A stretch of DNA of 64,000 nt from Prorocentrum cordatum (GCA_963575745.1 CAUYUJ010000303.1:310001-374000), one strand, 5' to 3'; positions 41,391 to 64,000 are shown, numbered from the stretch's first letter. Notes: generated by a model from the sequence alone, not told the origin. A program made the numbers and translations.

Positions 41391-41461
<71 letters not shown>

Positions 41462-41530
41462 AATGATGACGACGACGATGATGATGCTGATGAGGATGAG
41501 GAGGAGGAGGAGGAGGAGGAGGAGGAGGAG
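41180..41530. repeat. (ATG)n and (GAG)n microsatellite
   Basis: Seen directly. Confidence 0.95.
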
Positions 41531-41939
41531 GTTTCTCGGGTGCCTCTTTCAGCTTCCAGAGAGCTTTTCGGGCCGTCTTGAGCCGATCTTGAAGGGCCCG
41601 TAGGCCGCTTTCCACGCTCGTAACACCTCAGGGGCCCGATGCGACAATCAGAGGAAAACCTTACGAGTTTGCGCATTGTGTTGTTTCTTTGCAGCGCTAG
41701 TTGGAGCTCCTTTGGGGCTTTCTTCGGCCGTCATTCGGACGCCATGCGGCGTGTTGGGGTTGTCTCTGCCGTTTTGGAAGTTTTGGCCCTGGCATCGGAT
41801 GTTGATGCTAATTCTAGGGCTTGTTTCGACAATCCACTTTAATTGCCCCCTTCATTTGCCACGGGGGGGGGGGGGAAGAACCCGCCTGGGGAAAATTATC
41901 CCAGTGCGACCCTACCTAGGAGTTGGAGCATTTAGGAAA

Positions 41940-44310: not shown

Positions 44311-44744
44311 ATGGGCGATGCAGGCGGATACACATGGGGTGGCGCGGGAGGATGGTGGGATAGCCGCAGCAGCGGCTGGCGTGGCTGGGAGGACGGCCAT
44401 GATTGGTCAGCGAGGGGTTGGAGAGACTGGCGACAAGACGGGCACACGCCAACGGAGGACGCCAAATGGCGCGATGGCCCTGCCGCCGCAGCAGCGGCGG
44501 CGGTCTCGCCTCAACGGCCGTCTCGCTTCGCCGCGCTTAGCGTTGTGAGCCCCCGCGCCCCTGGTCTCGGCATGCCCGAATTCGATAATTTCGTGAGGGC
44601 TGCCCTCCGAAACTCACCAGAACCTGGGAACACAGTTTCAGGAGAGGGGTCGGGATCCCGAGCCGCGCCTGCGGCGCAGGAGCCCCGCGCCACCGCAGCG
44701 GCGGCGGCGCGCGGGCCCCAGGATTTTGAGAAGTTTGATGTTAA
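44311..44744 (+). pseudogene. Unknown gene, 5' part (G/W-rich N-terminus), split by element B
   Basis: ATG at 44311; reads ..QDFEKFDVN up to the element left end. Confidence 0.55.
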
Positions 44745-45935
44745 TCTAAAGGCTGCCGCCTCTGCCGCCGACCCCAAATTGGGGTACTGTGTTCGGTGTT
44801 TTGTGTTGTCGTGTTCTGTAGCTAATGGGCGACGCCGAAGTCGCCAGGCGCATGGCTGCCTTTAGAGCCGCCCGTTACCTGGTCGGGCGGCTGTGGTACC
44901 ACGTTGCTGGTGCACGGTCTTTGCGTTTGTTGCACTGGTGGGGAGGGGGGGGGGGCGGGACAGCCAAGTATCTCACACCCCTTTCACCCTAGGCAAGCGA
45001 GGGTCGGCGAATTGTCTTGCGGATCCGAGTCCTACTTCTACTCCTCGGGTTGGGAGGACGGGGTTGGGAGGAATGTTGGTGTCATCCATGCCGCCGCGCA
45101 TGTGGAAGGTGCTGATTGCACAGTCGTGCCTTGTACCTTCTCAAGCAGAGTTGTCTTTCTCACTGTGAGATGGCCCCCGAGGCCGAACACGCATTTTCCG
45201 TCGTGCTCGCGCGCCGCAGCGGGAGGGCCCGGAGGTTAAGTCGGGCGGGCCCCTCTACAGGGGGAATTTCCAAATATAGTCACACAAATAGTCCGGGGAC
45301 GATTTATTCATTCTTGTTGGTTATTTTTGATTATGTTTTCTGGCTTTTTGTCAAAAAAGGTTTGTCGAAAACCCGCCTGCAGGGGGGCGTGCCCGACTTA
45401 ACCCTGGAGCTCCTGCAGGGCTCTGCGGGCCGTCGGCCGGCTCCCGCGGCGCCGGCCACGGAAGCCCGGCGCGCGCGGCGACGCGGCCCGGCGGGAGCGC
45501 ACGACGCGAGGGGTTGAGGCGCCGAGGGTCCCTCGGGTGCGCAGCCAACGCAGGCCCCCTCGCGCTGCGAACAAGTCTCGACGGGGGGGCGGGGGAGGAG
45601 GGAGCCCTCCTGGGAGCAAGGAGAGGCGACACCACCACCGCCACCAGCGCGACGCGCCAGGGGGGGGGGATCTTTCTGCTTCCCGGTGGCGCGGTTCTTC
45701 CTGCCGGAGGTGCCCGCCCCCCCCCCCTTTTGTGGTGTTGCCCAGACCTTTCGCGCTGTGAAATCAACGCGACGGGAGTTCGGCCTCCGAGGGCCCTTCC
45801 CAGAATCCGGGCCGTCAACAAAAACGACTCGGGATGAAGAACCTGTCCCAGAGAAAGGGTCCAGACCTCTTATGGGGGTCGACGTAGCTAAAAAGTCACG
45901 ACGTCGGGGGTCTGGGAAGATGGCGGGGGGCGACA

Positions 45936-47252
45936 ATGGCCCCCCGGAGGGGGGTTGGAGCTCGCGGCCAGGGCCCTGGTAATTACCTCTCCAGGTCACG
46001 CGGCCCCCTCTTCTTTTTTCAATGGGTCCCTTGGCCCCCCCCCACTCCCTGTGCCGCGCACGTGCCTCTCGGGCCCTGCTCCGCGAACCCCCCTCTGGGA
46101 CGGCTCCCCTCTCGGACGCTCCGGCCACGCACGGGCGCGGAGCTTGCAGGCATCGCGTCTGTGATCTTGAAGTCGGGCGGCGACGACGATGCTGCTGCAA
46201 GCGTGGCCACGTTCGTGCACCAAGCTCTCGTGCGCAGGAAGGTGGTCGTGGATCTCATCGAGGGGGTGAAGGCTCGCGGGCATCGCGCGTACAGGAACGT
46301 GGACATGGATGAGGTCCGGAAAAGAGCCATGGAGCTGCCGGAGGAGGGCGTGCCACCGGAGATCATGCGCCTGGTACCCCTGGACGACGCGCTTGAGAAG
46401 ATCCAAATGCAGAAGGCGGCGACGCCCGTGCCGAGGCCCGACGGGCTACGTGAGGCGGGAGACATTTTGGATACTACGAAGGCGAACGCTGTGGTGTGTG
46501 AGAAAAGCAGTTTCGATGAGGGAGACATCAATGCGCAGCGGATTGAGGCCGTGCGGACCTTCGTGCAACGGCTAGATGAGGAGTGCGCGCATGGCGGGGC
46601 CGACGACACGTCGAACTCCAGCGAAGACGAGGAAGGCGGCTGGAAGGCAGAACGGGCAAGTAAACGCGGCCGCGTCCGCGAGCAAGCGGCCTCGAGCGCG
46701 GATGAGGCGGCGCGAGAAGCAGTGGAGCGCGACATGCTGAGTCAGGCCGGCCGCGAAAGGAAGCGCGTGGATCGGCTCCGCGTGCGCACTGGAAACGTTA
46801 TGATGGATCAGTTCGAGCCCTGGTATTTCGGCGTCGCGTTCGCGTTTCTGTTTAGGTATTGCACGGGAATGCCTGACTGCCCAGAGTTCATGAAGCGCCC
46901 GCGCCACCGACGGGGGAACGGGGCGCCGCGGGTGGAGCTGCCGCTGTGGGTGAGGATAATGAGTCGTCGCGTGGAGAGCCAGATTTCCCGCGACTGGCAC
47001 TTCGGATTCGTGTCGTGGAACCTTGTGTTTCGATCGGCTGTGAACCTGAGCAGGACGTGGTTCACGTATGTGACAGCGAACGCATCAGGCGAGGTCGAAC
47101 AGCTCTCTCCCGCGGAAATCGCGGAAGGAGTGAAGCAGATGTATCGCGCGCTCGACGGGAAGTACGTAGACATCAACAATAGGAAACAGAAAGTAAACGG
47201 CGACATGACCAAAAGTGCGGCACGTGCCAGGGTTGGGGAAAGCCGCCCATAA
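45936..47252 (+). CDS. Helitron RepHel N-terminal region
   Basis: VRRKVV.., QFEPWYFGVAFAFLF..G.PD, W.FGFVSWNLVFR resemble the region preceding Helitron Rep. Credible coding starts near 46140; frameshifts into the next ORF near 47215. Confidence 0.7.
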   Translation: MAPRRGVGARGQGPGNYLSRSRGPLFFFQWVPWPPPTPCAAHVPLGPCSANPPLGRLPSRTLRPRTGAELAGIASVILKSGGDDDAAASVATFVHQALVRRKVVVDLIEGVKARGHRAYRNVDMDEVRKRAMELPEEGVPPEIMRLVPLDDALEKIQMQKAATPVPRPDGLREAGDILDTTKANAVVCEKSSFDEGDINAQRIEAVRTFVQRLDEECAHGGADDTSNSSEDEEGGWKAERASKRGRVREQAASSADEAAREAVERDMLSQAGRERKRVDRLRVRTGNVMMDQFEPWYFGVAFAFLFRYCTGMPDCPEFMKRPRHRRGNGAPRVELPLWVRIMSRRVESQISRDWHFGFVSWNLVFRSAVNLSRTWFTYVTANASGEVEQLSPAEIAEGVKQMYRALDGKYVDINNRKQKVNGDMTKSAARARVGESRP

Positions 47253-48004
47253 GCTGCTGATGCACATAGAGCACACTTCGCGGCGACTGTCTGGAACGCA
47301 GGAAGCTCGTCGAGTCATGCGGTTTGAGACGAACGCGCTGCACGTACGGTACGGCGTCCCCATATTCGTAACTTTCTCGCCCGACGAAGGTCACAATCTG
47401 CTCATGGTGAGACTCTCGCGTAGTCGCAGGCAGGACCCCGTGCACAAGGCAGCTGATGATGAAACGCACTCGCGGCTGGCGGGGGGTCGGGGCTGGCCGC
47501 GCGTAGCCCCCGACATCGATGGGCTGCTCATGGACTTGCCGATGGCCACGGGGGAGGCAGGAGTGCCGCCATGGAACGAGCGCAGACGAATTCTCGCGAG
47601 AGATCCCATGGCCAGCGTGGACGGCTTCCGTATCCTGGTGGACGCCACGCTCCGTCACTTGTTCGGCGTGCGGACCTGTCCGAACTGCCCGCGGTGCAAC
47701 GAGGCGGAGAATGGGGCACCTTGCCAGGACCTGTTCGGGAGTAATGCTCAGCCCGGGGGAGGCGCGTTCGGGCGCGTTGATGCCTACTACGTGTCGATCG
47801 AAGCGCAGAAGTCCACGGGGTCTCTCCACGCGCACTGCCAGGTATTCATCCAGTGCCTGCACCAGCACACACCGCTGGAAGAGGTATTCGAAATCGTCCG
47901 CGACGAGGTGGAAGGCCGTGGAAGGAAGATCGTGGAGGATTATTTGAAGTATAAGAGTCGCGTGTGCCGCCAGGTTTACTCGGAGCAAATGACACAGAAG
48001 GAGA
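47215..48004 (+). CDS. Helitron Rep HUH endonuclease motifs I-II (truncated by gap)
   Basis: YGVPIFVTFSP (motif I), RDP, FGRVDAYYVSIEAQKSTGSLHAH (motif II; HUH at 47827-47835). Confidence 0.88.
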
Positions 48005-48104
48005 NNNNNNNNNNNNNNNNNNNNNNNNNNNNNNNNNNNNNNNNNNNNNNNNNNNNNNNNNNNNNNNNNNNNNNNNNNNNNNNNNNNNNNNNNNNNNNNN
48101 NNNN

Positions 48105-48565
48105 TTGGGACAGAATTTGTCGAGTGGGGGGCCCCAAGAACAGAGTGCTCTCGGGGTGAGAATGCCAGACGAGGGAGGAGCCAGGTGGGGGGCGTGGGTA
48201 GGTTTTGGGCCAGAATTTGTCGAGTGGGGGCCCCAAGAACAGAGCCAGACCAGGGAGGGGCCAGGTGGGGGCGTGGGTAGGTTCTCCAGAATTTGTCGAG
48301 TGGGGGGCCCCAAGAACAGAGTGCTCTCGGGGTGAGAATGCCAGACGAGGGAGGGGCCAGGTGGGGGGCGTGGGTAGGTTTGGGCCAGAATTTGTCGAGT
48401 GGGGGGCCCCAAGAACAGAGTGCTCTCGGGGTGAGAATGCCAGACGAGGGAGGGGCCAGGTGGGGGGCGTGGGTAGGTTTTGGGTCAGAATTTGTCGAGT
48501 GGGGGGCCCCAAGAACAGAGTGCTCTCGGGGTGAGAACGCCAGACGAGGGAGGGGGCCAGGTGGG
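48105..48565. repeat. Subterminal minisatellite of element B (about 100-bp unit)
   Basis: Repeated CAGAATTTGTCGAGTGGGGGGCCCCAAGAACAGAGTGCTCTCGGGGTGAGAATGCCAGACGAGGG. Confidence 0.9.
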
Positions 48566-48681
48566 GGCCGTGGAGGTGGGGGTGTCGGATCAGGTCGACG
48601 GCGGGGCGGCTTGGGGCGAAAAATTGTCGGGTGTGGTATCCAGCTCAGAAGGATATCGCACACGCCTCTGGGGTCGGCGGA

Positions 48682-49392
48682 TTATTTTTGAGTTATGAAG
48701 AGAGGCTCGGCACTTCGTTTAAGCAACACAATCAAGCGTTGAAATGGTGGCGCCATCTGAATGAAGACCCAACTGCCCCGTTCGAGTCAGAAGCCAAGTG
48801 GTATGACAATGCGGAGCCCACCATGGTCGCTGTTTGCGACCACGGTGCGAGGACGAGCTTTGGTTTCAAAAGCGACGAGGAAGTCCCTTGGCGGCGGCAA
48901 GAGATGGTGGCGACGCTCAGGGAGGAAGATATCAGGGAGGTCGTGGGGGGGCCCCGCAGCAGCGGGGCTCTGATCGGCTGCCCCCTCGAAGTCCGGCCAA
49001 ACAGCTACGACCACATGCGTCAGAGTATTGTGCGCGCGCGACAGTTCGCGGGGCAGCGGGTGAAAGTGAAGCTGCCGATGTGGGATTTCGTGTTGCACCG
49101 CGACGACGGGACAGGCGTCCGTTTACACCCGCACTGGGGCGACAGGAAGGTCGAAGCTCTGCCCCTCGTCCCCCACGCGGACACGGCGAGGCCACCAGCC
49201 GCGGGTTTGGGCGGGAGCGACGGGTCAGGAACTTTTCGCTGGCACAAGGACCTCGGTGTGGAGCGCAAGGTCAAGTTCGACGCCGCCAGAGAGAAGGGGA
49301 GGCCGACGCCTTCTCAGGGGCCCCGCAGCAGCGGGGCCGCGGCGTCCAGCACCAGGCCCTCGGCGTCCGCAGCAGCGGGTGGCAAACAGTAG
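48682..49392 (+). pseudogene. Unknown gene, 3' part
   Basis: Globular-looking sequence (FKQHNQALKWWR..WDFVLHRDDGTGVRLHP) starting exactly at the right end of element B. Confidence 0.6.
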
Positions 49393-52275
49393 TTTTGGGG
49401 CCGAATAACTCCCCAGACGATTTGGTTGCGGAGTAGATGGCTCCGCAGCAGCAGCGGGGCTCGAACGAAGGGCGCGTCGCATTTCGGCAGGGGCGCGCGC
49501 GTCGGCCGCCGAGATCGGGAGCGCGCGTGCAGGCGCCGTGGCGCGATCTTCGTTAGAAAGTCTTCCCTCTCCTCCCTGTCCCCCCATCCCGCCGCCCTCA
49601 ACGTCGGCTCCTCGCCGCCCGTTCCTCGTCGCTCCACGCCTGTTCGTTCTCCTCTAATTTCCTCTCCCGCTTCCTCGTTCTCTCCTTCCCATTTTCCCTC
49701 CACCCCATTGCATCCCTGGCGCCCCAGCGAAGTTCGCAGTTCGAAGTTTGAAGTTCGGAGTTCGAAGGTCGCAGTTTGAATTTCGAAGCTTCGCACTTCG
49801 AGGTTCGATCTTCGAACCTTCGTCATCTCGTCGTCGTAGTCGTCGTCCTCGTTCGTCGCCGTCGTTCCTCGTCGGCGTCGATTGTCGTTGTCGTCGTCGC
49901 TCGTTGTCGTCGTCGCCGTCGTCGTCGTGGTCGGCGTCGTCGTCGTCGGTCGTCGTCGTCGCTAGTCGTCGTCGCTGGTCGCCGTCGTGGTCATCGTCCT
50001 CGTCGTCGTCGTCGTGGTCGTCGTCGTCCTCGTTGTCGCCGTCGTGGTCATCGTCCTCGTCGTTGTCGTGAAACGCCCCACGTAGGAGGAGCAGAGAAGG
50101 GAGTAAGGAGAAATGATCACGGTGGAGGGAGGAGGGAGGATTGAACAGGAAGAGGAGGGCGCAGATGGAGGTAGAAGGGATGAGGTAGTTCAGAAGTGGG
50201 AGCAGCAGACTGGCGCAATGGGAAAAGCCATGTGAGTGCAGGGAGGGATGGAAATGCGATAAAGTGAAGCCGCAGCCGTTGCAGGTCTGCCCCCCGCCGC
50301 GCCCGCCCGCCTCCGCGACGGAACCGCGCAGGAGCCTCTGCCGAAGTCTCCGCAGCAGCGGGGACTGCCAGAGGAGGCTCCTTCGCGGCCTTTGCGCCGC
50401 TATGGCGAGCATCGCGGGCAAGTGCGACGTCGATGACTTCGAGCTCATCACGACGGAGGGCAGTGTTTGGAACTGGGCGACCATGGTGGCGCGGTTTTTC
50501 CAGTGGCGCAATCGTTGCCGCCATGCACGCGCCGTTGGAGAGAAGGGCCAGATGCTCGTCGACCAGGCGCGGCAGATGATGGAGGAGGCGCGCCGTACCG
50601 AGGAGAAGGACAAGATGATGCTTGAGATGTCGAAGAAGACGGTGAAGGACATCCCAGGCAATATTCGGCACTTTTGCCGCCAGCCGCACCAGGAGAGCTG
50701 AGCGGCGATCGGAGCTGGGCCGATAGAGGAGGATGAGGAGGAAGAGGAGGGGGGATGAGGAGAGGAGGAGGAGGGGGATGAGGAGTTGGAGGCAGCACGC
50801 GCACCCGCACTAAGAGCCGCCAGCCGCGCCCGTCTCCGAGCATGAAACCCGAGCTTGGCTGGAAGGGGGGAGGGTGGTAGCAGAAACAGCGCGGGACAGG
50901 GATGGGAGAGGTCACGCATCCGCCGCAGTAGCGGCGGTGGTACGACAGTTCTCATGGCGGCGCGGCGGTCGCTGAGAAATGGAGCACGTGCGTGGGCCTG
51001 CGTGCGCTTAATTATGAGTGGCTCTCGTCCCCTCCCCTCCTCTTCCTCCATGAGATCTCTCTCCTGGTGCATATCCCCTGCCAGGTCTCGTCCTGCTCCT
51101 CTATCCGCCCCCCCCTCGTCCGTTCCTGCCACCAGCCACATGGGGCGTTCTCAATCAACACCCCATTGAGTGTCCCCATGTGAAGGTTGCCCTTGTCATG
51201 AGGGCGGACTCGCAAGAGCCGAGTGGCTGAAGAACTAGTAGTTTGGGGTCCGAACAGCTCCCCAGACGATTTGGTTGTGGAGTAGGTGGCTCCGCAGCAG
51301 CGGGGCTCGAATGAAGGGCGCGTTGCATTTCTGCAGGGGCGCGCGCGTCGGCCGCCGAGATCGGGAGCGCGCGTGCAGGCGCCGTGGCGCGATTTTCGTT
51401 TTGAAGTCTCCCCTCTCCTCCCTGTCCCCCCATCCCGCCGCCCTCAACGTCGGCTCCTCGCCGCCCGTTCCTCGTCGCTCCACGCCTGTTCGTTCTCCTC
51501 CAACTTCCTCTCCCGCTTCCTCGCTTTTCCTTCCCATTTTCCCCCCATCCCAGTCCATCCCTGGCACCCCAGCGACGTTCGCAGTTAGAAGCTGGAAGTT
51601 CGGAGTTCGAAGATCGAAGTTTGAATTTCGAAGCTTCGCACTTCGAGGTTCGATCTTCGATCCTTCGTCATCTCGTCGTCGTAATCGTCGTCCTCGTTCG
51701 TCGTCGTCGTTCCTCGTCGGCGTCGATTGTCGTCGTCGTCGTCGCTCGTTGTCGTCCTCGCCGTCGTCGTCTTGGCCGGCGCCGTCGTTGTCGATCGTCG
51801 TCGTCGCTAGTCGTCGTCGCTGGTAGCCGTCGTGGTCGTCGTCCTCGTCGTCGTCGTCGCGGTCGTCGTTGCCCTCGTTGTCGCCGTCGTGGTCATCGTT
51901 CTCGTCGGCGTCGTCGTCGTCGTCGTTGTCGCGAAACGCCCCACGTAGGAGGAGCAGAGAAAGGAGCAAGGAGAAATGAGCGCGGTGGAGGGAGGAGGGA
52001 GGACTGAACAGGAAGAGGAGGGAGCAGGCAGAGGTAGAAGGGATGAGGTAGTTCAGAAGTGGGAGCAGCAGACTGGCGCAAGGGGAAAAGTCATTTGAGC
52101 GCAGGGAGGGATGGCATTGCGATAAAGTGAATCCGCAGCCGTTGCAGGTCTGCCCCCCGCCGCGCCCGCCCGCCTCCGCGACGGGGGCGGCCCGGGGCAT
52201 GGAGCAGCAAGGCGCGACTGGAACCGCGCAGGAACCTCTGCCGAAGTCTCCGCAGCAGCGGGGGCTGCCAGAGGA
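49390..52275. repeat. About 1-kb direct duplication (49390-50375 vs 51237-52275)
   Basis: Long colinear near-identical blocks, including TTCGAAG and GTC-rich tracts. Confidence 0.9.
50402..50701 (+). CDS. Hypothetical small helical protein
   Basis: ATG at 50402; coding-like composition, no recognisable domain. Confidence 0.35.
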   Translation: MASIAGKCDVDDFELITTEGSVWNWATMVARFFQWRNRCRHARAVGEKGQMLVDQARQMMEEARRTEEKDKMMLEMSKKTVKDIPGNIRHFCRQPHQES

Positions 52276-54927
52276 GGCCCCTGATGCAGTTCCGCATGGA
52301 ATGGCAGATTCAGCACCGGCCTCCGCAGCAGCGGGGGAGGAGGTTGCAACGAAACTTCGGACATTGCTTTCGTCGATGTCTGGTGCCCAGGAAAGCGTTT
52401 CGCAGAGCCTGCTGGCTGCTCAGGAAATCATGGAGAATGGCGAGATCGAAGAGGCGCGGAAGTTAACGGCCGCCGCCAACCGCCTTGTAGTCACAACGGC
52501 TAAGGAGGCGGCTTCCGCAGCAGCGGGGGCATCCGTGGAGCCAGGCGCCGCCGCAGTGGTAATCGAGCCTGGACAGAACGCCGCCCGCTCCGATGACCCG
52601 AGACCGAGATCTCCCTGCACGACTAATTGGCGACAACGGCAGGCTCTGATCGCAGCGCGCAAACTGCGTGAAAGCTCCCCCGCAGCAGCGGGGGCCCGCG
52701 CGATCAAGCCTCTCGCCCTGACCTCGAAGGCTCGGTCGCCAGCGCTTCCTGTCCAAGAGGGCTCCCCAGAGGAAGGCCGCCCGCACTTCCCATCGGAAGA
52801 GCGCGGCCCGAGCCATTCCAAGCCTCTTGTGCCCCTGCTGTACGACGACGAAGACCAGGTGCAGGAGGGGCAGACAGAGGCGCGCGCGAATCTGGCTTTT
52901 GCTTCCCTCGTCCTGCGCGCGGGCGCCCCCCTGTCGGATTGGGTCGCAGCTGTCAGGGACAGGCGCGAAGGGGTCGTCTTAGTCTCCTTCGAGCTTGGCG
53001 CACGCATCAATCGCGACCGGCGGAAGCAACATCTCGACGATCTCATCCGCCAGAGTGGCTTCCACGGGGAGGTCGCGCGCGAGTGCGTCGGGGCTCTCCT
53101 CTGGGTTCCCGAGCGCGTCGAGCAGTGCGAGGTGCTTCGCTGGCACTGCCACGGGAAGTTCCTGGTTCAGGCCTGGTCGGTGACCCTGGCAGCGGTGGCT
53201 CACAATCCGAAAGCAAAGGAAGGCAAACTCCCCATAGCAGTGGGGGGCGTGTTCTTCCGACACCAGACGAGCCTCGCGGGAAACCCGTGGCCCGAAAACT
53301 TCCGCAACGGGCTGCGGAACCTGGCGCTGTGGCACCGAGTGCGTATTCTCGCTGGGATCTTCGACGCAGACAGGGAGGATCTTTCGGAGCTGCTCAGAAG
53401 TTGCGGCGCGTCTGGTACAGGCGTACTCGGCTTGGCTTTGCGGTGTCCGACAAAAGGTTATCACGTGACGCACCCGCACTACATCGTGATTCTTGGCCCC
53501 GCTCAGGTTCGCGAGTGCCCTGCGGGCGGGCAGCCTGATCTGCCGCACTGGTTGAATCAGGTTTCCCAGCCTCCGCAGCAGCGGGGGCTCCTCACCAGGC
53601 TGCAGTACCGCCAGTTGGATTGGGCGGCGCGTCCGACCTGGGTCAGGCTCACGGACGCGGAGCGCAAGGAGCAGGAAACATATGACTGGCCGCACTTGCA
53701 CAGGGTGATCCACAAGGCCCAGGATGCGAACCGCCTCGCGGAACATGCCACACATTGTTCGTTTTTATAGAAGCCAAGAACAGGAAGTCTGGCAAAGGCG
53801 CCGCGGCCAGGAAGAAGGATCGGAAGCGGGAAGCCAAGTGGGAAAAACAGCGGGGAGAGTGGGCGGAGACAGAACCCGAAGCAACAGCCTCAGCAGCAGC
53901 GGAGGCGCACGGAGACCAGGAGGAGGCGGAGACAGAATCTGAAGCAGCAGCCTCCGCAGCAGCGGGGGCGCACGGAGCCCAGGAGGAGCTTGAGGGCGAC
54001 GGGCGCGACGCCGTCGACCTCTGCAGCCCCACGCCGCCCCAGGACGAACAGAGCAACCCTGACAGAGGTGAGAGGGAGGAGAAGAAGGAGAAGGATAATA
54101 TGAAGAAAAACAAGAAGAAGAATAACAAGAAGAAAGATATCAGGAGCAGAACCCCAAAGAGGACGAAGCCCTCGCAGCAGCGGGGGGGCAGCCGTTCCAC
54201 ACGCAGAGAGCGGGAGCAGAGGAGCAGAGACCGAATGAGGAGAGTGCCCTCGCAGCAGCGGGGGCGCAGCCGCTCCAGACGCAGAGGGCAGGAGCAGAGG
54301 AGGCGCAGCCGCTCCAGACGCAGTGGGCAGGTGGAGGGCGGCGACCGCAGGGCGGCGTGGGCAGGGTGGTTCCTGCCCACGCCGCCCGCGCACCCACCCC
54401 ACACAGGTCAGGTGATGCTGAGGCCGAGGGCATGGCGCCCGCTCCTCCCAGGCCAGATATGCCGTCCGCCAGGCATGCCGCCAATGATGCCACCACCACG
54501 GCCACCTCCCCCGCGTGGAGGAGGACGCCGCGGGGCCCCCCCGCTGGAGGAGACACCGCACCCTACGGCAGCGCGGCTCGTCCCGAGCCAGCCGCCGCAC
54601 CCTCCGCCGAAGCGGCTCCTGCCAAGAGAGTCGCAGACGCCCCCCCCTCTGGCAGCGCCGCTCGTCCCGAGGCCGCCGCCGCAGCCTCCCCCGCCGCAGC
54701 TCCTCTCCAGGGAGTCGCCGCTTCCTGCGGACACGTTTGCGTTCAACAGTGACGCGTTCGAGGCATTGTCGCGGCGCCGCAGCCCTTCAAGCGACTCCAG
54801 CTGGCGGCGCGCGGCTGCGGAGACCTCCGCAGCAGCGGGGGTGGTCTCCGCAGCAGCGGGGGTTATCATAAGAGATCTGAGGCGCGGGCTCGGCGCGCGC
54901 GCGCGAGGAGCCAGGCGCTCGCATTGA
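52127..54927 (+). CDS. Hypothetical protein (ORFs 52127-53770 and 53755-54927, probably joined across a frameshift)
   Basis: Alpha/beta-looking domain at about 52870-53770, then K/R/S- and P-rich tails; the overlap falls at a T-run near 53762. Confidence 0.5.
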
Positions 54928-55069
54928 GCGGCTGAAGAAATCGCGGTCGTTGTCGTCGTGCTCGTCGTCGTCGTTTGCTTTTTGCTGGGGGGGGAAGGAG
55001 GACGAGCAAGAGGAGGAGGAGGAGGAGGGGTCCTGCAGGGACCAGGGCCGACACCGGGACCAGGGGAAG

Positions 55070-55255
55070 AGCGGGACCGGGACCGGGAGCGGGACAGGGA
55101 CGGGGAGCCCAGGACGGGCAGCAGAACCGACCACGGGACCGGGACCGGGACCGGGGCCGGGACCGGGACCGGGACCGGGAACGGGGGTGCTGGTCCCGGT
55201 CCCGGTCCCGGTGTCGGTGCTGGTCCCGGTCTCGGGCTCCCGGTCCCGGTCCCGC
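55070..55255. repeat. (GGGACC)n followed by its inverse (GGTCCC)n
   Basis: Seen directly; self-complementary arrangement centred near 55185. Confidence 0.85.
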
Positions 55256-56294
55256 TCCATGTGTCAGCTCTTTGTCCCGCTCCCGATCTCTGCCGTGCCG
55301 TTTGGGTTCGAGATCGCCAGCCATGAAGGTTAGGAAGCCTGACACAAGGATCGGGCGATGCCGCATCGGCGAGAAGAGGAATAGGAAACCCGACACAAGG
55401 ACGGGACGATGCCGCGTCGGCGAGAAGAGGGCTTTTCGGAAACCGGATCACAGACCTCATTCGAGCAAGCGCGCTGGGGCGGCGGCTCGACCCACGGCAG
55501 CGTCGGCGAAGGCGGCCGCGCGGCCGCTAGCTCGGCGCAAGGCGAGCTCCAAGAAAGAAGCCCTCGCAGTAGCGGGGGCTGCTGTAGCCCTCGCAGCAGC
55601 GGGGGCTGCTGTCTTGGAGCGTGGTGGGTTGTGGGATGAGAAGACTGCTCGGAGGGCAGGTCTGGACGATGACGATCCATTCGATCAGGCACTTTGGTAC
55701 CGCGATCATTGGGGCAACTGGTACAAACTAGGGTCCAAGATGCCGCCAGTCGGCAGCTCCTGGCAAGAAGGCGCCGACCCCCTTCGCATGTAATTACGGG
55801 GCGGATGAACACGACAGTGCCCCCAGATGGTTGACTGCACGGTCCTCAGGATGACCACGACATCCCGAGCGCACAAGGGGAACGCCCCTCCGCAGCAGCG
55901 GAGGGATGTCGCGAGAATTTCTCCGAGGGGGGTTGTCCTCGGCGGAGGGGCGCACTCGCGCGCGCGCGGGGGAGCGCGGTTTCGCGCGCCGCGTGCGGCA
56001 TCGCATGCGGTGTGGGGAAAAACACGACATCTGTGCTGTCACCTATGTCCTGCTCTCTCCTTTGCTACGCTTCCCCTTGCACTCCCTCCTGCAATCCCCC
56101 GCCCGTCATTATGCCTTTGTAGTGATCATCGCTTCCATGCACGCAACTCACACAGCGCCCCTTTTCTCTCACAGATGGGTTCGGGGTGGGAAATCTTTCT
56201 CTCACACAGGGGGGGCCGATGTATCAATGCTTCTCCTGTTCAGGCGGATGTGCGCGTATCGAAAAACTGAGAAGGCCGCGTCGACCCGCCGTTC

Positions 56295-56362
<68 letters not shown>

Positions 56363-56585
56363 CCTCTATCTGCCTTTCCTCTCCTTCTCCTTTTGCTCAA
56401 GTGCGGGCAGGCCGCGGATCCGTGAGGCCCCTCCTTCTGCCCGCGCGCGCGACAGGCACTCGTGCTTCAAGCGGGGCCCCGCAGCAGCGGGGGCAACCGT
56501 CGCGGAGCATCTGTTTTGGAAGCTGCCCCCGCAGCAGCGGGGGCGCCTGGATAGATGTCCGAGGACATCAAGTCAGGCCCCCTGA

Positions 56586-59048
56586 ATGATGCCGCCACGT
56601 TGCGCAGCCGCTATGCCTTGGAAGGACTCCGAGGGCCAGCGGCTGAAGGCCAAAATTTCCTTGGAGGATATCTGCGTCCACCCGCAGAACAGAGGTGGGA
56701 CGTACCCCTCCGCTGCCGAAGTGGTTAATCTCCTGCGTGGCATTCTGAAAGACAGGTTCCTCTTGAACGAGGCGCAGCACGAAGCAGTGGTTGTTCAGGA
56801 ACTCCCTGCGGGGAAGAAGGCCGATTACGAGCGCCTCCATGGCAGGCCGTGCACGGCGCACGCGGACCACAAATTGCAGAAAACGGAATCCGTGGAAGCT
56901 CTACGCTCGGCGTACACAAGCTTGTCAACGTTCAACTACAGGGCGCTGAGCCACTGCACCCTAACCCTTGGTCTGCTGAGCCTCAAGCACGGCGCAGTGT
57001 GGGTCATTCCCGAAGACCACAAAGGATGTGGCTTGGAGGAGTTCCAGACAGGTACAGGTGGCTCCTGGGATATCCCAAAAATGCGTCGCGCACCGAAGTT
57101 CACAGAACTCATGGACGTGCTCGATAACGGTTTGCTTTGCGAGGTGCTCTCGTGGGAAATTCACTTCGGTGCCGTCTTCGCGCAAGGCCCCGCGATCATT
57201 TCCGCGGCCCTGAACGACCCACAGGGAAAAGGTGTGACCTCTCACGAAATCGAGGTCCTGACGTCCGTCGCTGATTTCGTCGCCACCGCAGCAGCGGCGG
57301 GCAAGACAGCATCGTGCGGATCTCAGACAGGACACCCCGTGAATATCTCGTACGACACTGTTCTCAAGGCTTGCGCGCAACGACATCCCGAGTACGCCAC
57401 GGCCAAATGGTTCGAGGACATGCTTACTTTCGTCATCAACGTGGGGGCCGCATCAGGGCAGCTCATACCGCAAATTCTAGATTATGATCGACGTTGGGTG
57501 GATCACAAAATACGCTCCCTGGCACCAGCCACATGGGGCGTTCTCAACCAACTCCCCATATATTGTCCCCATGTGGAGGTAGCCCTTGTCATGAGGGCGT
57601 ACTCGCAAGAGCCGGGGTGCGGACAATGCCCCGCGCCGGAAACGGCTTGGGGACACAGCGAGGGCAACAGTCGGATACAGGAGCTCAATTCTTTGTTGGG
57701 GTATGTCCGTCGCATATTGGCCCCCGCAGCAGCGGAGGCCCACGGGGAGGAGAAGAGCGCGATTTTGACCGCGGGGGCGGTTCTGACTGCGACGGACACC
57801 TTCTACCAGGCGTACGTAAGGGTGAAGGCTAACAAACCTCGTCTGGAGGCAGTTGTGGAGGCCGTGTGCGAGACAGTGCGTCCGTACTATGCTGAAGTAC
57901 GCGAGGCCTGGCAGAAAATGGAAAAGAACGCACAGAAAGAGTTCCCGCTCCCTCCTGCGCCGTGGACCGACAAGTTGCCCGCGGCCCCCGAGAACCCCGC
58001 TGGCCCTCGCAGCAGCGGAGGTGGCAAGGGCTCTCGCCCGCAGCCAGTTATTGATAGAGTTCAACGAAGAAGACAAGCCTCTGAACAGGCAGATGTCTGA
58101 AGTGTCCAAGCCCGTGAACAGCCTGATGGTGGTCCCAGTGAATCGTGGCACGCTTCGGCTCCGTCTGGCAATCTCGACACAGACAGGTGGCACCAAGCAA
58201 GCATCGCGGAAGTCATGACTGGCTTCCATCGTCACGCGGACACTTGCGCCCAACCCGTCCAGATGCAATATGACGTTCAGGCCGAGAGTGTCCATGTGGT
58301 GGCTACTGGGGACATCGCCGAGGGGGAACTGATGCTCTTCCCTTGCTGCCCCACCGCGAAGATTTTCCCGAAAGTCCCGAGCAATCCGCGGGCAGTGGAT
58401 GTGCTAGTCGGTGAGAAACGTCCGACTCCTGTCGAGAAAATGGAAAAATATTGGGCACAACTTGATTTCAAATTACCAGAGCTGGAGCTCAAGCCCGCGC
58501 CGCAGGAAGCGGCCTCCGCAGCAGCGGGGGCTGCACAGGGCGAGGCGCCCGTGGGTCCGCAGCTCGACGAGGCGGCCCCCGCAGCAGCGGCGCCTGCACA
58601 GGGCGAGGCCGAACAGGCAGAGAATCCGTGCCAGTTTAAGTTCGGAGGTACCGAGTCCTTGCACTTCTTTTGGGGAGTTGAGAGGATGACACCAGAAGAA
58701 CTTGCCCGAGCCCAGCTAGTGCAGGGACAGGAGCGCTGGAAGTTCAACGTTGCACTTCAACCGCTCGAGTTCCAGACAATGACAAAGTGCCAACCAGCCG
58801 CCCCCCTCCGCGTCTGCAGCGTGCTTGTCCCGTGCATGCACAACGCGGTGCCGCTGGTGCGCGGAGATCGGCTGATGCTGCAGATCACAAAGGAGAAGAG
58901 GGCCACCGACACCCAAAAGGAGAAGCAGGCATGGCAAAAGGAGCAGAAAGAGCAGGAGAAGAAACGGAAGAAGGACGCCGAGGAGGGACGGAAAACCCCC
59001 AAGAGCGGCAAGATGACAATCCCTGGCCAGGGGGCCCACTTCGTGTGA
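56586..59048 (+). CDS. Large hypothetical protein (56586-58100 and 58215-59048, probably one frameshifted gene), possible ParB/Srx-like N-terminus
   Basis: Long complex-composition ORFs; N-terminal ICVHPQNRGG..LLRGILKDRF is reminiscent of ParB-like folds (weak). Confidence 0.55.
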
Positions 59049-59984
59049 TCCCGCCGCAGCAGCGGAGGGTGCGCGAAACGGAGCGGCAGATGACAGCGGC
59101 CGATGATCCACCCGTCGCAGCCCGCAGCCGTCAGCTGGAGGGGAGGAGGAAAAGGGCGGGGAGAGGAGGTCGAAGAGGGAGGGGGGAGGGGGGCAGCAGA
59201 AACAGCACAAGACAGGGATGGGAGAGGTCACGCATCAGCCGCAGTAGTGTCGGTGGTACGTCAATTCTCATGGCGGCGCGGCGGTCGCTGAGAAATGGAG
59301 CAAGTGCGAGGGCCTGCAAATGCGGAAAATGTGAGTGCCTCTCGTCCCCTCCCCTCCTCTTCCTCCATGAGATCTCTCTCCTGGTGCATATCCCCTGCCA
59401 GGTCTCGTCCTGCTCCTCTCCCTCTAAGTTCGTCCTGCCCTCCCCTCGCGCCTCGCCTCCGTCTCCGTCCCCCCTCGTCCGTTCCTGCCTCCCTCCCGCG
59501 TCCTGTTTTCCTTTCTCCGTGCTCATCGCCCTGCTCATCGTCCTGCCGTCCTGTTCGCGGGACGCCCTGTGGGACAGAGGGGCGGTCGAAGCACACAAGG
59601 CCGAACCCTTCTGCGACAGAGGGGGCGGGGTCGTGCTTTTCCGCGCGCCCTCCTCTGTGAAACAGGGGTGGTCGTTCGATCAGGACGCCCCCCCCTGCGG
59701 GACAGAGGGTCGGTCAGAGCACACAAGGCCCCCCCTCAAGGGGCAGAGGAGCGGTCAAGGGACAGGGAAGGCAGTTGCGCTCGTTCGGAGAGAAGGAGGG
59801 GGATGGGTTGGATGAGATGGAAAGAAGCTCGTGGAGGGAGCATGATGCGGATGAGGAGTGGGGGGGATCTGTTCGAGACGAGGAGTCCGCTTTCCATAGC
59901 CGCTTTCAGGCGGTTCATTTGTGAGGGGGGCCGACACCTAGGACGCGCGCGCCTTCGCAGCAGCGAGGGCTTGCGCACGGCGGC

Positions 59985-60942
59985 ATGAAACGCAAGGCAG
60001 AGGACGCATGGCGGGAGGTCGCTGTCGGGAAAGCAGCGCGCCAAGATGGCGCGAGCATGGGGGTGCTCTGCGCGACGGGCGGGCTGTGCCGAAGTCACGA
60101 GGGAGCAGCGGGATTTGCCCTGGAATGCGAGGAGCGCTGTGTTGTCTTGGGCGGCGAGGAAAGCCTAGAAGCCTTCGTGCCCGTCGGAAAGCACCGCCTG
60201 TGGATGCTCAAGGTGGTCGGTGGTCACAGTGCCGTGAAGGGCGCTTTGAACGAAACAAACTTGTTAGATCAATTGCATGGGAAGCTTCGCGCTGGAGAAG
60301 GAGACAACGTGGATGAAGCGGCGACTCCTGTGAAAGAGGCCCCCGCAGCAGCGGGGGTTGCAGCAGGGTCCCCCGCAGCAGCGGGAGAAAAAAGGTCGGG
60401 ATCACATGGCGGATCTCCTCGGCACCGTCAAGGCCGCATCGAAAGCGAATAAAACCCCTGAGAAACAGAAAGGGTTTCCTCGAGGCACGCTCTGCAGAGT
60501 AACCATGCCGATGTCTCCTAAGCCAGATGAGGCCGACACGAAAGAGGTTAGTGTGTATGAGAACAGATATGGGCAACTACTCGTTCAGAGTCAGGACCTG
60601 CCTTGGCTTCTGCATTACCTGTACGAGGAGAGCCAGGGCAAAAGCTTCCCCGAACCCAACGACGACGACGAGGACGACGCTTTGGACGAGAAGCGCCCGT
60701 GGACCACCAGGTGGTGCCCCTCTGGGATGTGGACACTGGAGGTCAAAGGAGGGCCAATGGCAGGCCGAACATGGGCCTCCAGGATTCAGGATCTGAACGA
60801 GGAGAAATGGTCCACAGGCGTGGCGTTGACGGAAGTGACGACGCCCTTGAAACAGTCCACCCGTGCGCAGCAGAAGCAGGTTCTTCTAGCGTTCTTGGAG
60901 GACGTGGTCCAGAAAGCCATCGAGCAGGAAACAAAGCAGTGA
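59985..60942 (+). CDS. Hypothetical protein (59985-60452 and 60358-60942, frameshift near 60390)
   Basis: The paralog at 61846 reads through the same junction in one frame (AAGEKGRDPMADLLG), so the two ORFs are one gene. Confidence 0.65.
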
Positions 60943-61845
60943 TGTCCTCGTTGTCCGCTCGCTGGCGCGCGCCGCAGCAGCGGCGCGCTGACCGCTACAA
61001 CGGCTTTTTTTTATGCAAACAGACTCGGTGTGTGCACCGCACCAGCGGCGCGCTGACCGCTGAGGTGGATGCCTGCGGGTTCCTGTCGACTGGACAGGGG
61101 TTAGGGCACGCGCGGGGGATCGCGAGCCTGCGGCTCCCCAGCGCTCGCGCGCTAGAGGACAAACGGAACTCGCGGAATCTGGCGAGGACGGGGCGGAGGG
61201 GCTGGGGCCAGTAGGAGGGGGAGGGGGAGGGGGAGGAGGAGGAGGGGAAGGAGGAGCAACAGCAGCAGCAACAGCACACTAGCAGCACCGACAGGAGGAT
61301 CATTGCGAGGATGCGGCCGTTTGCTTGCCCTGCGGCGCTGGGCTCGAGACAAGAGGGCGGCCGCGTGTGCGCGCGCATGGCTTCGGCATCATGGCCGCCG
61401 CAGCCGCTCCGCCCCCAGACCCAGGCGGCGCTCGCCATGCAAACGCGCCTCTGCGGGTCGGGCACGACCGCGAGGTCAACGAATGTGGAGTTTTTATAGC
61501 AACAAGACAAAACTAAAGACCCCGACAGAGTGCTCATGAATCCACGGAAACTACAGAGACCAATATTTGGATTCGGGTAATTACGTTATGCGCCGCAGCA
61601 GCGGCGCGGCTTGCCATTATGAATCTGGCAAACGCACATGGAAGAATATTCATTTATGCTCGCAGTGGCCGTGGAAAAGCGACCACAAGCAGTGGTTAGG
61701 TTTTGGAGTCCGATGAGAAGTAGGAGGATTTGTTCGAGACGAGGAGTCCGCTTTCCATAGCCGTTTTCAGGCGGATCACCAGTGAGGGGAGTTGACACCT
61801 AGAACGCGGGCGCCTTCGCAGCAGCGAGGGCTTGCGCGCGGCGGC

Positions 61846-62383
61846 ATGAAACGCAAGGCAGAGGAAACATGGCGGGATGTCGTTATCGGGAAAGCAGCGC
61901 GCCAAGATGGCGCGAGCATGGGGGTGCTCTGCGCGACGGGCGGACTGTGCCGAAGTCACGAGGGAGCATCGGGATTTGCTCTGGAATTTGAGGAGCGCTA
62001 TGTTTCCTTTGGCGGCGAGGAAAGCCTAGAAGCCTTCGTGCCCGTCGGAAAGCGCCGCCTGTGCATGCTCAAGGTGGTCCGTGGTCTCAGTGCCGTGAAG
62101 GGCGCCTTGAACGAAACGACAATGTTAGAGCAAGTGCTTGGGAAGCTTCGCGTCGGAGAAGGAGACAACGTGGATGAAGCGTCGACTCCTGTGAAAAACG
62201 CTTCCGCAGCAGCGGGGGTTGCAGCAGGATCTCCCGCGGCAGCGGGAGAAAAAGGTCGGGATCCCATGGCGGATCTCCTCGGAACCGTGAAGGGCGCATC
62301 GAAAGCGAAGCAGGTGGCGGCGCGTCGCCAACCAGAGAAAACCCTTGAGAAACAGAAAATATTGTCTCGAGGCACGCTCTGCC
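61846..62383 (+). pseudogene. Truncated paralog of the 59985 gene
   Basis: MKRKAEETWRDV..; region 61730-62383 duplicates 59870-60495. Confidence 0.7.
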
Positions 62384-63009
62384 TCTCGCTCCGTGCGGTC
62401 GTCTTGGGCGGCGTCGGGCCTCCGCTGACTGATTACATGATGCATGTATGTATATGTTGTGTATGTATGGTGTGTCGACGTATATGTATGTACATACGTA
62501 TATGTGTGTATTTATATCTATATAGGTATGTATATATAACGCGGTCGCAGGGGCGTGGCCCGCGGCCCAGGGCGGGGCCCGAGACTCTGGGACAGGACAT
62601 AGGGCCTCATCATCGTAGGATGCTCATCATTCTCACCATCGCCATGATGGGGGGGGAGGAGGGGACAGCTACCAGCTGCGCGCTGGCGCCACCGCCGCCC
62701 CCCCGCGCCCGCTGGCGCATCCGCAGTGCGGCTGCGGGAGGGACTGCGCCTCAATTCCTGCAGAGGCGGCCTGCAGGCATGTTGCACTTGTGGCGTCTAG
62801 TACAAACGCCCGAGCGGCCCGCTTTTTTTTTGGGGGGGCTCTTGCTTCACGGTGGAAGAGGAGACTATCATCATCCCCCGTGCCGCGTTCGCCTTCCCTC
62901 GACGACGGCGTCGGCGACTTCCCACATTCTGGCCTTGTTTTCTGGGGAGTGTTCTCGGAGTCGTTCGGGGCGTTCGTTCGTGTGTGCATGCTTCTGAGTT
63001 TTCTGCGCG

Positions 63010-63196
63010 TCGTTCGGGCCGCTCGTCCTGGTGTGAGTCGTTCGGGCCCCTCCTCGCCAGCCCATCTCACAGCGGCAACCCTCGCGAAGCATGCCGACGG
63101 TCGTGTTTTTTTTTCAGGCGTGTGTCCGCTGGTCCCCGCATATCTCCCTTGTTCCTCGTTCCTCCCGCCCCCTTGTACATCCTCCTTGTGGGGGGA
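63010..63196. repeat. Fragment of the 1090-2468 element family
   Basis: CCAGCCCATCTCACA..GCATGCCGAC..CTTGTACATCCTCCTTGTGGGGGGA matches 1114-1249. Confidence 0.85.
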
Positions 63197-64000
63197 TGCG
63201 ACCGTTTGCTTGCCCTGCAGCGCTGGGCTCGAGACCAGAGGGCGGCCGCGTGTGCGCGCGCATGGCTTCGGCATCATGGCAGCCGCAGCCGCTCCGCCCC
63301 CAGACCCAGGAGACGCTCGCCCTGCAAACGCGCCTCTGCGGTTCGGGCACGACCGCGAGGCCAACGAATTTGTGGAGTTTTGGTACCAAGAAGGCAAAAA
63401 GAAAGACCCCGACAGAGTGCTCATGAACCCACGGAAACTAAAGGGGACAATATTCGGATTCGGGTACGTTATGCGCCGCAGCAGCGGCGCGGCTTGCCAT
63501 TATGACTCTGGCAGACGCATATGTAAGAATATTCATTTCTGCTCGCAGTGGCCGTGTCCCAGCGACCATCGTCTGGCGGACGGTTCTGTGGACTACAATA
63601 AGTGGTCAGACTTGCAAGCGCCCTGGCATTTAGGGCAATGCGCGGGCGGGTGGCCCGCAGGAGCGGGGGCCCCCGCAGCAGCGGAGGCGCCGGCCGAGGC
63701 GTGCGAGGTCCCTGCTGAAGCGGCAGCGGAGCCGTCGGTGGGCCCTGCTGAAGGCCCCGCAGCAGCGGGGCCGTCAGCGGAGGCGTGCGTGGCCCCTGCT
63801 GAAGTGGCAGCGGAGCCGTACGTGGGCTCTTCTGACGGCCCCGCAGCAGCGGGTGCGTCAGCGGAAGCGTGCGCGCCTCCTCCTGAAGTGGCGGCGGCAC
63901 CGTGCGCGTGCCCTTCTGCAGAGCCCGCAACAGCGGAGGCGTCCGTAGGTCCTGCTGGCGCGCATGGCGCCGACGCAATCGCCGAGGCCGCTTCCGCAGT

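Follow-up and report, generated by a model that had tools for sequence, protein, structure and literature searches.

A 12-base hairpin word recurs on one strand of an orphan gene cluster in Prorocentrum cordatum

We analyzed a 64,000-nucleotide stretch of Prorocentrum cordatum DNA (GCA_963575745.1, CAUYUJ010000303.1:310001-374000; hereafter the window, with positions counted from its first letter) and found that a 12-base hairpin word, CCGCAGCAGCGG, recurs on one strand only through a cluster of co-oriented, intron-free genes at 44364..63936 that continues to the window end. The core of the word is a 4-bp stem, CCGC/GCGG, closing an AGCA loop, and the stem is usually extended to 7-9 bp. The genes, which we call X, B, A, C and D in their order along the window, with duplicated units between X and B, are best read from their sequences as an array of members of a very large, multi-copy set of orphan gene families in a dinoflagellate nuclear genome. 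The explanation that we favour, tentatively and at somewhat less than an even chance, is that the word is a recognition hairpin of putative function, carried on the family's sense-strand RNA or single-stranded DNA and accumulated by substitution.

Abundance, strand and structure of the hairpin word

Exact copies of CCGCAGCAGCGG number 34 on the + strand of the window and 0 on the - strand; the expectation from 100 shuffles that preserve dinucleotides is 0.02. When up to one mismatch is allowed, 51 rows are obtained, again on the + strand only, with 1.03 expected. Most of these fall in the gene cluster (the tract), which holds 32 of the 34 exact copies (within 44,364-63,852) and 45 of the 51 rows (the 32 exact copies and 13 one-mismatch variants, two of which overlap each other, within 44,364-63,936); the other two exact copies lie in a Copia element, at 9,221 and 9,458. 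The word is the commonest 12-mer of the tract and is spaced at one per ~350-600 bases through the gene cluster, with motif-poor long spacers at 59066-60342 and, in the related locus L006 described below, between positions 1640 and 2631. The first-pass annotation of this DNA had put the tagged copies at about 40 in one orientation, with none noticed inside an inserted "element B", and the counts agree with it: all 27 positions that it listed fall within 2 bases of an exact match, and the interval 21.2-44.3 kb, comprising element B and a satellite, contains 0 copies. Taken together, the Copia element, a PIF1 element, the satellite and a Helitron-like insert account for 6 of the 51 rows. Between 44,705 and 48,953, where the Helitron-like insert lies, none of the tract's 45 rows is found, a gap for which a Poisson estimate gives ~4e-6.

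The word is used in all three reading frames and also between genes, as the annotation had stated. In the longest open frame around each of the 34 exact copies it is read as AAA in 17 cases, RSS in 9 and PQQR in 8, and most copies lie inside homology-supported open reading frames (ORFs), with some outside them; selection at the peptide level is ruled out by this use of all frames and by the intergenic copies. A generic CAG/GCA triplet-repeat expansion was also considered as the source of the motif and is ruled out by sequence context, since among the 43 GCAGCAGC octamers on the + strand of the tract (1 on the - strand), 32 are flanked by CC..GG and four by TC..GG.

The stems extend beyond the core in a strand-specific manner. 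Base counts around 32 copies give GGCC(C/T) as the consensus of the left flank and (G/A)GGCC as that of the right flank, and when the 34 exact copies are read on the + strand, the mean contiguous extension past the 4-bp core is 3.32 bp, compared with 1.77 +/- 0.25 for re-paired flanks (maximum 2.65 in 2,000 trials) and 1.82 for the - strand reading. The first extension pair is Watson-Crick in 15 of these copies, G·T in 12 and A·C in 3, while four TCGC...GCGG variants retain pairing via T·G. Across 52 distinct copies from the window and its relatives, many of them orthologous or duplicated, 83.3% of stem cells are paired versus 75.3% after shuffling, and the covariation score is 0.271 versus 0.135 (0/500 shuffles as high in either case); slid registers score at most 0.126, and single stem pairs alternate among CG, GC, UG and UA. 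Typical 22-mers have computed folding energies of -17 to -22 kcal/mol when treated as RNA and of -9 to -15 kcal/mol when treated as DNA. The claim that the tract carries a strand-specific structural tag, with covarying stem extensions and T-G wobbles that pair only on the + strand, is therefore upheld by strand counts, stem extension and covariation alike. Given the use of G·T and the covarying stems, the signal would be read in single-stranded form on the sense strand.

Conservation, family footprint and origin of the copies

A metagenome scan yielded six related loci (L001-L006) with 75-77% DNA identity to the window across gene A; a seventh candidate, L007, was dropped as a bacterial LysR-type contig with a chance peptide match. 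Over 17,050 bases, the six loci contain 31 exact copies of the motif, every one of them on the gene strand, so that the window and its relatives together hold 65 copies on one strand and 0 on the other. Several hairpin positions are common to the window and the relatives: two 50 nt apart before the ATG of gene A, several within the ORF, and one 6 nt after the TGA stop. In the window, the 5' pair lies at 56479..56540 (copies at 56479 and 56529), and the pair and its 50-nt spacing are kept in L001, L002, L003 and L005; the 3' hairpin lies at 59054..59065 and is kept in L002, L003 and L006. In comparisons of the window with each relative, motif columns are 83-100% identical and the remaining columns 74-75%. 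Of nine motif sites in gene A and its flanks, four are invariant wherever they are covered (the two 5' sites, one coding site and the post-stop site), two vary by one base (in one case a loop C-to-T change that gives AGTA), and three turn over in an Ala-rich linker. These alignments indicate that the hairpin signal is retained more strongly than the surrounding sequence.

The synteny of the genes themselves is looser. Hairpin positions around gene A are shared between loci, but gene order is not: L006 carries gene A and then gene X, versus X..B..A..C..D in the window. The longest contig for a gene A protein and that for a gene X protein are each 9,123 nt, which is consistent with A-X linkage elsewhere without proving it. 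The family appears to be modular and the window to contain no one fixed unit, and the proposal of "one large mobile unit" was not sustained, given the varying gene order, the frameshifted copies in the window and the Helitron-like insert that splits gene X.

New copies seem to be gained in place. At window position 48954, CCGCAGCAGCGG stands where L006 has a sequence of equal length that differs by substitutions only (GPRSSG versus GPSGSG), and motif-free distant homologues align gaplessly with gene A at its TAAAAG and PAAAE sites. Neither a target-site duplication nor a conserved tag beside the stem was found, the base counts around the 32 copies showing the stem consensus only. The equal-length alignments at these three sites, together with the one-mismatch forms present in the tract, suggest that copies are gained by substitution rather than through insertion of a mini-element.

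The footprint of the word can also be followed in proteins. A gene A profile search returned at least 1,772 cluster representatives (50% identity) at E<=0.001, of which 988 remained at <=1e-10 and 276 at <=1e-30. In a sample of 162 gene A family proteins (87,126 aa; expectations from residue shuffles), the pattern [STPA]AVA[GAVDE] was observed 355 times against 8.9 expected, PQSR 20 times (0.8), RSRG 24 (0.7), PQLR 14 (1.1), PQWR 5 (0.2) and RSGG 8 (0.6). The flanks demanded by NCC-GCN-GTN-GCG-GNN accompany 355 of the 474 AVA tripeptides, where 10% would be expected. The gene X family, which is unrelated to gene A, displayed the same peptides in a sample of 57 proteins or clusters (22,362 aa): AVA was observed 134 times (3.4 expected), PQSR 16 (0.2), RSRG 38 (0.7), RSGG 18 (0.8) and RSSG 17 (0.7). 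The enrichment of AVA, PQSR and RSRG in the two families ranges from 25- to 190-fold, and gene X sub-lineages can be sorted by type, the closest relatives carrying AAA+RSSG and others AVA+RSRG, AVA+RSGG or AVA+RSRG+PQSR.

These peptides correspond to one stem with different loops. Translated in three frames, CCGC-AGTC-GCGG gives PQSR, AVA and RSRG, an AGTG loop fits PQWR and RSGG, and the AGCA loop of the window lineage fits PQQR, AAA and RSSG. Because AVA, PQSR and RSRG are the three frames of a single word in two unrelated families, we infer that the whole family set shares one stem with lineage-specific loops, distant lineages having CCGC-AGTN-GCGG; the words implied for the AVA/PQSR/RSRG lineages would be CCGCAGTCGCGG, CCGCAGTGGCGG and so on, on the gene strand. 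The three frames, the copies outside ORFs and these footprints all indicate that the unit is a DNA or RNA word and not a peptide.

The gene set evolves like repeats. By the NG86 method, the ratio of nonsynonymous to synonymous substitution rates (dN/dS) for the window and L002 is 0.55 over 810 codons, and close copies give values of 0.86-2.3, hence ~1 among close copies and lower at greater depth in a family of at least the size given above; this resembles the pattern of active lineages under constraint and inserted copies in decay. In addition, 28-48% of sampled 31-mers of a 10-kb stretch are present in eight sequencing runs from five studies, four of the runs being small marine-metagenome runs of one study, which hints at a high copy number.

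Organization of the cluster and its neighbours in the window

All features of the tract lie on the + strand, and gene boundaries are approximate. The W/G-rich N-terminal part of gene X (44347..44769; tblastn with the L006 gene X ORF, E 4e-11) carries hairpins at 44364 and 44486 and a variant at 44693. Its N-terminus (window 44347-44480; L006 2519-2640) is W-rich with G/S/D neighbours and GW/WG-type repeats, a composition found in Argonaute-binding "hooks". The conserved C-terminal part (48685..49392, stop at ~49390) is 55% identical to the L006 ORF over 282 columns (E 1e-89), has 57 homologous clusters and carries hairpins at 48954, 49323 and 49367. The two parts are separated by a hairpin-free insert of ~3.9 kb (44870..48600, edges approximate), delimited by Pfam matches, repeats, absence of the motif and the two halves of gene X. 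The insert contains an ORF at 45888-47249, a Helitron_like_N domain at 47209-48003 (+ strand, Pfam E 4.1e-10), a run of N at 48005-48104 and a 99-bp tandem repeat at 48111-48573. Since this insert is motif-free and interrupts gene X, the Rep-like gene appears to be a later insertion outside the tagged unit. A distinct hairpin with a 9-bp stem, AGCCGCCCG ... CGGGCGGCT, lies at 44862-44895 (+), where gene X homology ends at the left edge of the insert, and may be a terminal hairpin of the Helitron-like insert.

Downstream of gene X, a unit of ~0.95 kb is duplicated in copies that are 91% identical (49385-50321 and 51233-52184; region 49385..52184), with hairpins at 50350, 51292 and 52250 and variants at 49443-49457 and 50923. 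Each unit contains a long imperfect (TCG)n array (49820-50069, 81 units; 51665-51931, 87 units), and these arrays open long - strand frames at 49657-51150 and 51238-52419, which are probably not genes. Gene B follows at 52427..54924 (tblastn with the 749-aa homologue P0014, 61-63% identity in two frames); its product measures ~750-850 aa in relatives and ends in a basic R/S-rich tail, and the window copy is frameshifted near 53750. It is preceded by two hairpins, at 52250 and 52323, and carries exact hairpins at 52515, 52680, 53573, 53954, 54827 and 54848 and variants at 53891, 54172 and 54250. One NCBI-sourced gene model (P0016, 401 aa) joins a gene B-like segment to ~230 aa in which a GDLN-type stretch resembling endonuclease/exonuclease/phosphatase proteins was recognized by eye, with no Pfam match; it may be a chimeric gene model or a hint of a nuclease partner.

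A low-complexity spacer (54936..56470), with a (CT)n array at 56300-56371, a hairpin at 55890 and a variant at 55591, leads to gene A (56561..59048), which is read in the window as two ORFs (56586-58097 and 58101-59045) owing to indels. Besides the conserved flanking hairpins, gene A has internal copies at 57286, 57724, 58516 and 58579 and a T-variant at 58007. A word search gave 13 homologues with 94% down to 28% identity, mostly of 780-850 aa (790-850 aa in complete relatives), and the N-terminus has a conserved HPQNRGG segment. Beyond gene A lie two partly matching tandem units (59850..63556), in which 59850-60449 and 61712-62309 are 90.5% identical and 61309-61673 and 63194-63556 are 91% identical; they contain gene C (~59985-60939) and a partial copy of it, hairpins at 60343, 60373, 60972, 61593, 62204 and 63476, and variants at 61037 and 62234. 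The last feature, at 63330..64000, comprises the start of gene D and, after it, a tandem repeat with an 84-bp unit (63671-63943), in which each unit bears one hairpin (63673, 63757 and 63841) and variants stand at 63655 and 63925; it continues past the window end.

Domain and fold searches bore on the earlier suggestion that the tract is a giant element or an endogenous virus. In a Pfam scan of 61 tract ORFs, Helitron_like_N was the sole match, and no capsid, polymerase, integrase, packaging ATPase, reverse transcriptase or recombinase was detected, which agrees with the description of the co-oriented, apparently intronless ORFs as unrecognised. Pfam gave no match on the homologues either, and no genuine match among 30 scanned members of the gene A family. 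A profile search of solved structures with gene A returned nothing significant (best E 0.84, aldose reductase). The gene A structural model (predicted local distance difference test score, pLDDT, 69.6) had no significant Foldseek match in the PDB (best E 0.79) and none among the viral folds of BFVD; a VIA-wide fold search with this model returned helical-bundle matches alone (Z <=7.3). The gene B model (pLDDT 33.6) was left unused. In the ESM Atlas, gene A had no usable match, and gene X gave a sub-threshold lead (0.83) to 3'-5' exonuclease clusters that was not taken up; Rfam contained no family matching the window.

Searches for relatives among viruses and prokaryotes were likewise negative. 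IMG/VR yielded 0 loci with gene A and none with profile A7, and GTDB genomes yielded none with that profile; a single IMG/VR match to the protein P0012, on contig L141 (31% GC), was judged spurious. A 14-mer scan of IMG/VR produced single matches on both strands of unrelated contigs, and the 14 loci retrieved with a two-hairpin pattern were local tandem repeats of 2-5 copies each. The first-pass interpretation is supported in part: co-oriented, intron-free and unrecognised genes are tagged and their neighbours are not, but no hallmark gene, fold or IMG/VR relative of a giant element or endogenous virus was recovered in these searches, which covered orphan proteins of a tract that runs past the window. 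The family could be a mobile element or of viral origin.

Elsewhere in the window, the 3' portion of the dinoflagellate spliced leader is matched exactly or nearly so at 2528-2557 and 26265-26295 (+), with exact matches at 2528, 26265 and 26281, the last two in tandem. These matches look like relic leaders of retroposed genes and identify the host as a dinoflagellate. A Copia-type element of ~16.5 kb (4753-21228, +) has long terminal repeats at 4753-5037 and 20944-21228 (285 bp, 99.3% identical) and encodes RVT_2, the only reverse transcriptase in the window (19129-20832), as well as unusual Tpt1/KptA (RNA 2'-phosphotransferase) and RING-finger domains. Its two exact copies of CCGCAGCAGCGG sit in its internally repeated Ala-rich part. 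Other CCGC-N4-GCGG words of this element, many with A-rich loops, occur mostly in tandem Ala/Pro-rich peptide repeats (12630-12684 and 16707-16743), and the "hairpin code" ascribed to it looks mostly like Ala-rich tandem peptide repeats. A 1,287-aa open frame at 27549-31409 (+) contains a PIF1-like helicase domain (E 1.8e-15) and not one copy of the hairpin; it may represent the helicase portion of a Helitron-type element that is separate from the Rep-like fragment (47.2-48.0 kb). On its left, the tract adjoins a satellite block of ~6 kb (36220-42700, +) with units of ~200-430 bp and shorter arrays, in which G-over-C skew reaches 0.45.

Interpretation and comparison with known systems

If the word is a recognition hairpin, it would form on a single-stranded sense molecule of the family and be bound by a co-evolving factor, possibly a family-encoded protein, and would allow the family's own nucleic acid to be selectively bound, stabilised, processed or packaged. 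Copies would arise mainly via point substitution wherever the protein tolerates AAA, PQQR or RSS, and sites would accumulate because molecules that bear more of them multiply or persist better; such a molecular drive has been proposed for bacterial uptake sequences and the cyanobacterial palindrome HIP1. We lean mildly towards RNA transcripts over a single-stranded DNA intermediate, because the best-kept copies flank gene A and the long spacers are motif-poor. In a bolder form, which we consider possible but doubtful, the word would be a heritable "hairpin barcode" of a large, ancient dinoflagellate element family, with a CCGC/GCGG stem and a lineage-specific loop (AGCA, AGTC, AGTG and others), written by substitution at intervals of a few hundred bases along the sense strand of every gene of the element. 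A co-evolving, element-encoded protein would read it on an intermediate in single-stranded form, and recognition, packaging or protection would be confined to the nucleic acid of the lineage itself. Were this true, the family would be a eukaryotic nuclear counterpart of uptake sequences and viral packaging signals, with specificity switches between lineages.

Several observations weigh against recognition of a single-stranded hairpin or limit its scope. Kinship among the 52 aligned rows inflates the conservation and covariation statistics and lets the shuffle controls overstate independence, although the direction of the pairing and covariation result is clear despite it. G·T is also the best-tolerated mismatch in DNA hairpins, so that pairing does not distinguish RNA from single-stranded DNA. 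Genes A, B and X have no domain recognisable by Pfam. The loop variants of distant lineages have been read from peptides alone, and DNA shows a single variant, AGTA, which occurs in L001-L003 at one site of gene A and in L006 at one other site. The PAAAE site falls in a confidently modelled helix of gene A, where protein constraint could partly hold such hairpins. Finally, restriction of the motif to the tract is not strict, as the Copia element has an exact occurrence (9221 and 9458) that was duplicated internally.

The position of the best-conserved copies, two of them 35-85 nt before the ATG of gene A and one 6 nt after its stop, would suit a host-level mRNA cis signal acting at transcript ends or in processing, trans-splicing, translation control or stability, which would mark a regulon of duplicated host genes and whose loops would track host species. 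The motif-poor spacers are in line with such a signal, as are the spliced-leader relics, the co-oriented intron-free array typical of dinoflagellates and the pyrimidine-rich spacers that precede genes, such as the (CT)n array upstream of gene A, since spacers of this kind are expected in trans-spliced arrays. We nevertheless consider a host signal unlikely: the majority of copies are within ORFs, where an end or processing signal would truncate messages, the motif is missing from other coding sequence of the window, and the near-neutral evolution of close copies and their frameshifts suit repeats better than a regulated regulon. The stem halves form a perfect inverted repeat and could alternatively constitute a duplex DNA site, a near-palindrome with CCG/CGG half-sites bound by a dimeric DNA-binding, partition- or methyltransferase-type protein, with polar orientation as in the orientation-dependent Chi and KOPS sites. 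The HPQNRGG segment of gene A is, with no support from any tool, reminiscent of the N-terminal boxes of ParB-type proteins, and HIP1 offers a precedent of an iterated palindrome that is linked to methyltransferases (PMC4390886). A duplex site is improbable in our judgment, as it has no need of variable stem extensions that covary and use G·T but not A·C, and gene A has neither a ParB-like match in the fold searches nor a significant match in the profile search of solved structures.

The remaining explanations concern how the copies are made. Perfect or near-perfect stem extensions of differing sequence could be a functionless mutational by-product, in which hairpins that form transiently on the non-template strand of an array under heavy transcription or replication would be perfected when repair uses the strand itself as template. 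Recopying of an arm, however, perfects local palindromes and cannot write one 12-mer core and loop at dozens of unrelated sites, keep sites common to relatives at ~75% identity, or yield lineage-wide loop types in two unrelated protein families; we disfavour this explanation as quite improbable. Insertion in frame of a miniature mobile palindrome has precedents in Rickettsia palindromic elements and organellar palindromic repeats, and a 12-nt core that preserves the frame, its place in tolerant Ala-rich or disordered segments and the turnover in the gene A linker would all suit it. It is highly improbable here, given that motif-bearing and motif-free homologues are of equal length at the three sites examined, that target-site duplications and a stem-side tag are absent, and that one-mismatch intermediates exist. 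Least of all do we credit the copies as terminal hairpins or termination signals of Helitron-related rolling-circle elements, a disfavoured reading with hardly any probability left. The Helitron_like_N domain is encoded on the + strand and Helitrons carry a GC-rich subterminal 3' hairpin, but the Rep-bearing segment is the sole copy-free part of the tract, it interrupts gene X, and related loci bear hairpins without Rep.

Dinoflagellate nuclear genomes are huge, most of their content being orphan genes and repeats that lack an explanation, and hardly anything is known of cis signals that act on the transcripts or mobile DNA of these organisms. In the present case a single hairpin of 12 bases tags two orphan protein families, unrelated to each other, with well over a thousand clusters between them. 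Its footprint, AVA/PQSR/RSRG or AAA/PQQR/RSSG, is readable in protein databases and provides a handle to find and classify the family in dinoflagellate genomes and plankton metagenomes, and an RNA or DNA hairpin of 20-22 nt is a concrete ligand for isolating the reading factor. The family also lends itself to studying, as a natural experiment, how specificity changes in a recognition signal and in the factor that reads it. For annotators, short Ala-, Gln/Arg- or Ser-rich insert-like peptides in these proteins would be imposed by a nucleic-acid signal.

Among known systems, the DNA uptake sequences (DUS) of Neisseria and the uptake signal sequences (USS) of Haemophilus are dispersed, self-identifying sequences, and the packaging signals of satellite tobacco necrosis virus are dispersed stem-loops with A-x-x-A loops on the packaged strand. 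The hairpins described here resemble both in having many dispersed copies that are tolerated in coding sequence and, as we propose, favour propagation of their carrier; they differ in that the Pfam scan of tract ORFs revealed neither a capsid nor a receptor-like domain, the signal is carried by a multi-gene repeat family in the nucleus, and binding is putative. The stem-loop right after the stop of gene A is reminiscent of the histone mRNA stem-loop and of the Mimivirus "hairpin rule". In those systems, however, each gene has a single hairpin, placed at its 3' end, and in Mimivirus the hairpin sequence is gene-specific, whereas here a shared word is also found upstream and many times within ORFs. 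The subterminal 3' hairpin of Helitrons is likewise GC-rich and on the ORF-bearing strand, and a Rep domain lies within the tract; unlike the one hairpin per element that stands 10-12 nt from the CTRR 3' end of a Helitron, whose 5' end is TC, dozens of copies occupy conserved positions in and around unrelated genes, the hairpin-bearing unit has no RepHel, and 45 tract rows fit poorly with one per element.

Other classes of element were compared as well. Integron attC sites are cassette-end hairpins served by a tyrosine-recombinase integrase, while these hairpins are within ORFs at conserved positions and no recombinase domain was detected among the tract ORFs. At the three sites examined there was no indel, terminal repeat or target-site duplication of the kind left by palindromic insertions or miniature inverted-repeat transposable elements. 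Hallmark genes of giant viruses or Polintons were found by Pfam in 0 of 61 tract ORFs, a scan that divergent proteins or genes past the window would escape, and reverse transcriptase, as in retrotransposons, also in 0 of 61, the tract continuing past the window. Judged from listings and abstract openings, keyword searches of the literature on dinoflagellate hairpins, palindromes and repeats turned up no description of such a nuclear motif, and the literature matches to the exact 12-mer looked, among the matches listed, unrelated by title.

In behaviour, the word stands closest to HIP1, to uptake sequences and dispersed RNA packaging signals, to REP elements and to the 3'-end stem-loops of histone and Mimivirus messages. 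Repetitive extragenic palindromic (REP) sequences, their bacterial interspersed mosaic element (BIME) arrays and the associated RAYT transposases (PMC3733652) provide an example of short GC-rich hairpins in high copy that are read strand-specifically as single-stranded DNA. REPs lie outside genes, have GTAG or CGTC as a tag at the foot of the stem and are linked to an HUH transposase, whereas the copies of CCGCAGCAGCGG are mostly within ORFs and bear no tetranucleotide tag, and no such transposase gene was found in the family. HIP1 (GCGATCGC), the highly iterated palindrome of cyanobacteria (PMC4390886), is alike in several respects: in both cases a short palindromic word is over-represented, recurs every few hundred to thousand bases within genes and in all frames, and appears to be gained by point substitution and not by insertion (here a substitution-only difference at one site). 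Unlike HIP1, which is a perfect, strand-symmetric 8-mer spread across a bacterial genome, CCGCAGCAGCGG has an asymmetric AGCA loop that is not self-complementary and lies on one strand (34 versus 0 in the window and 31 versus 0 in the relatives), and it combines covarying stem extensions with restriction to one gene family set in a eukaryotic nucleus and a loop that seemingly changes between lineages.

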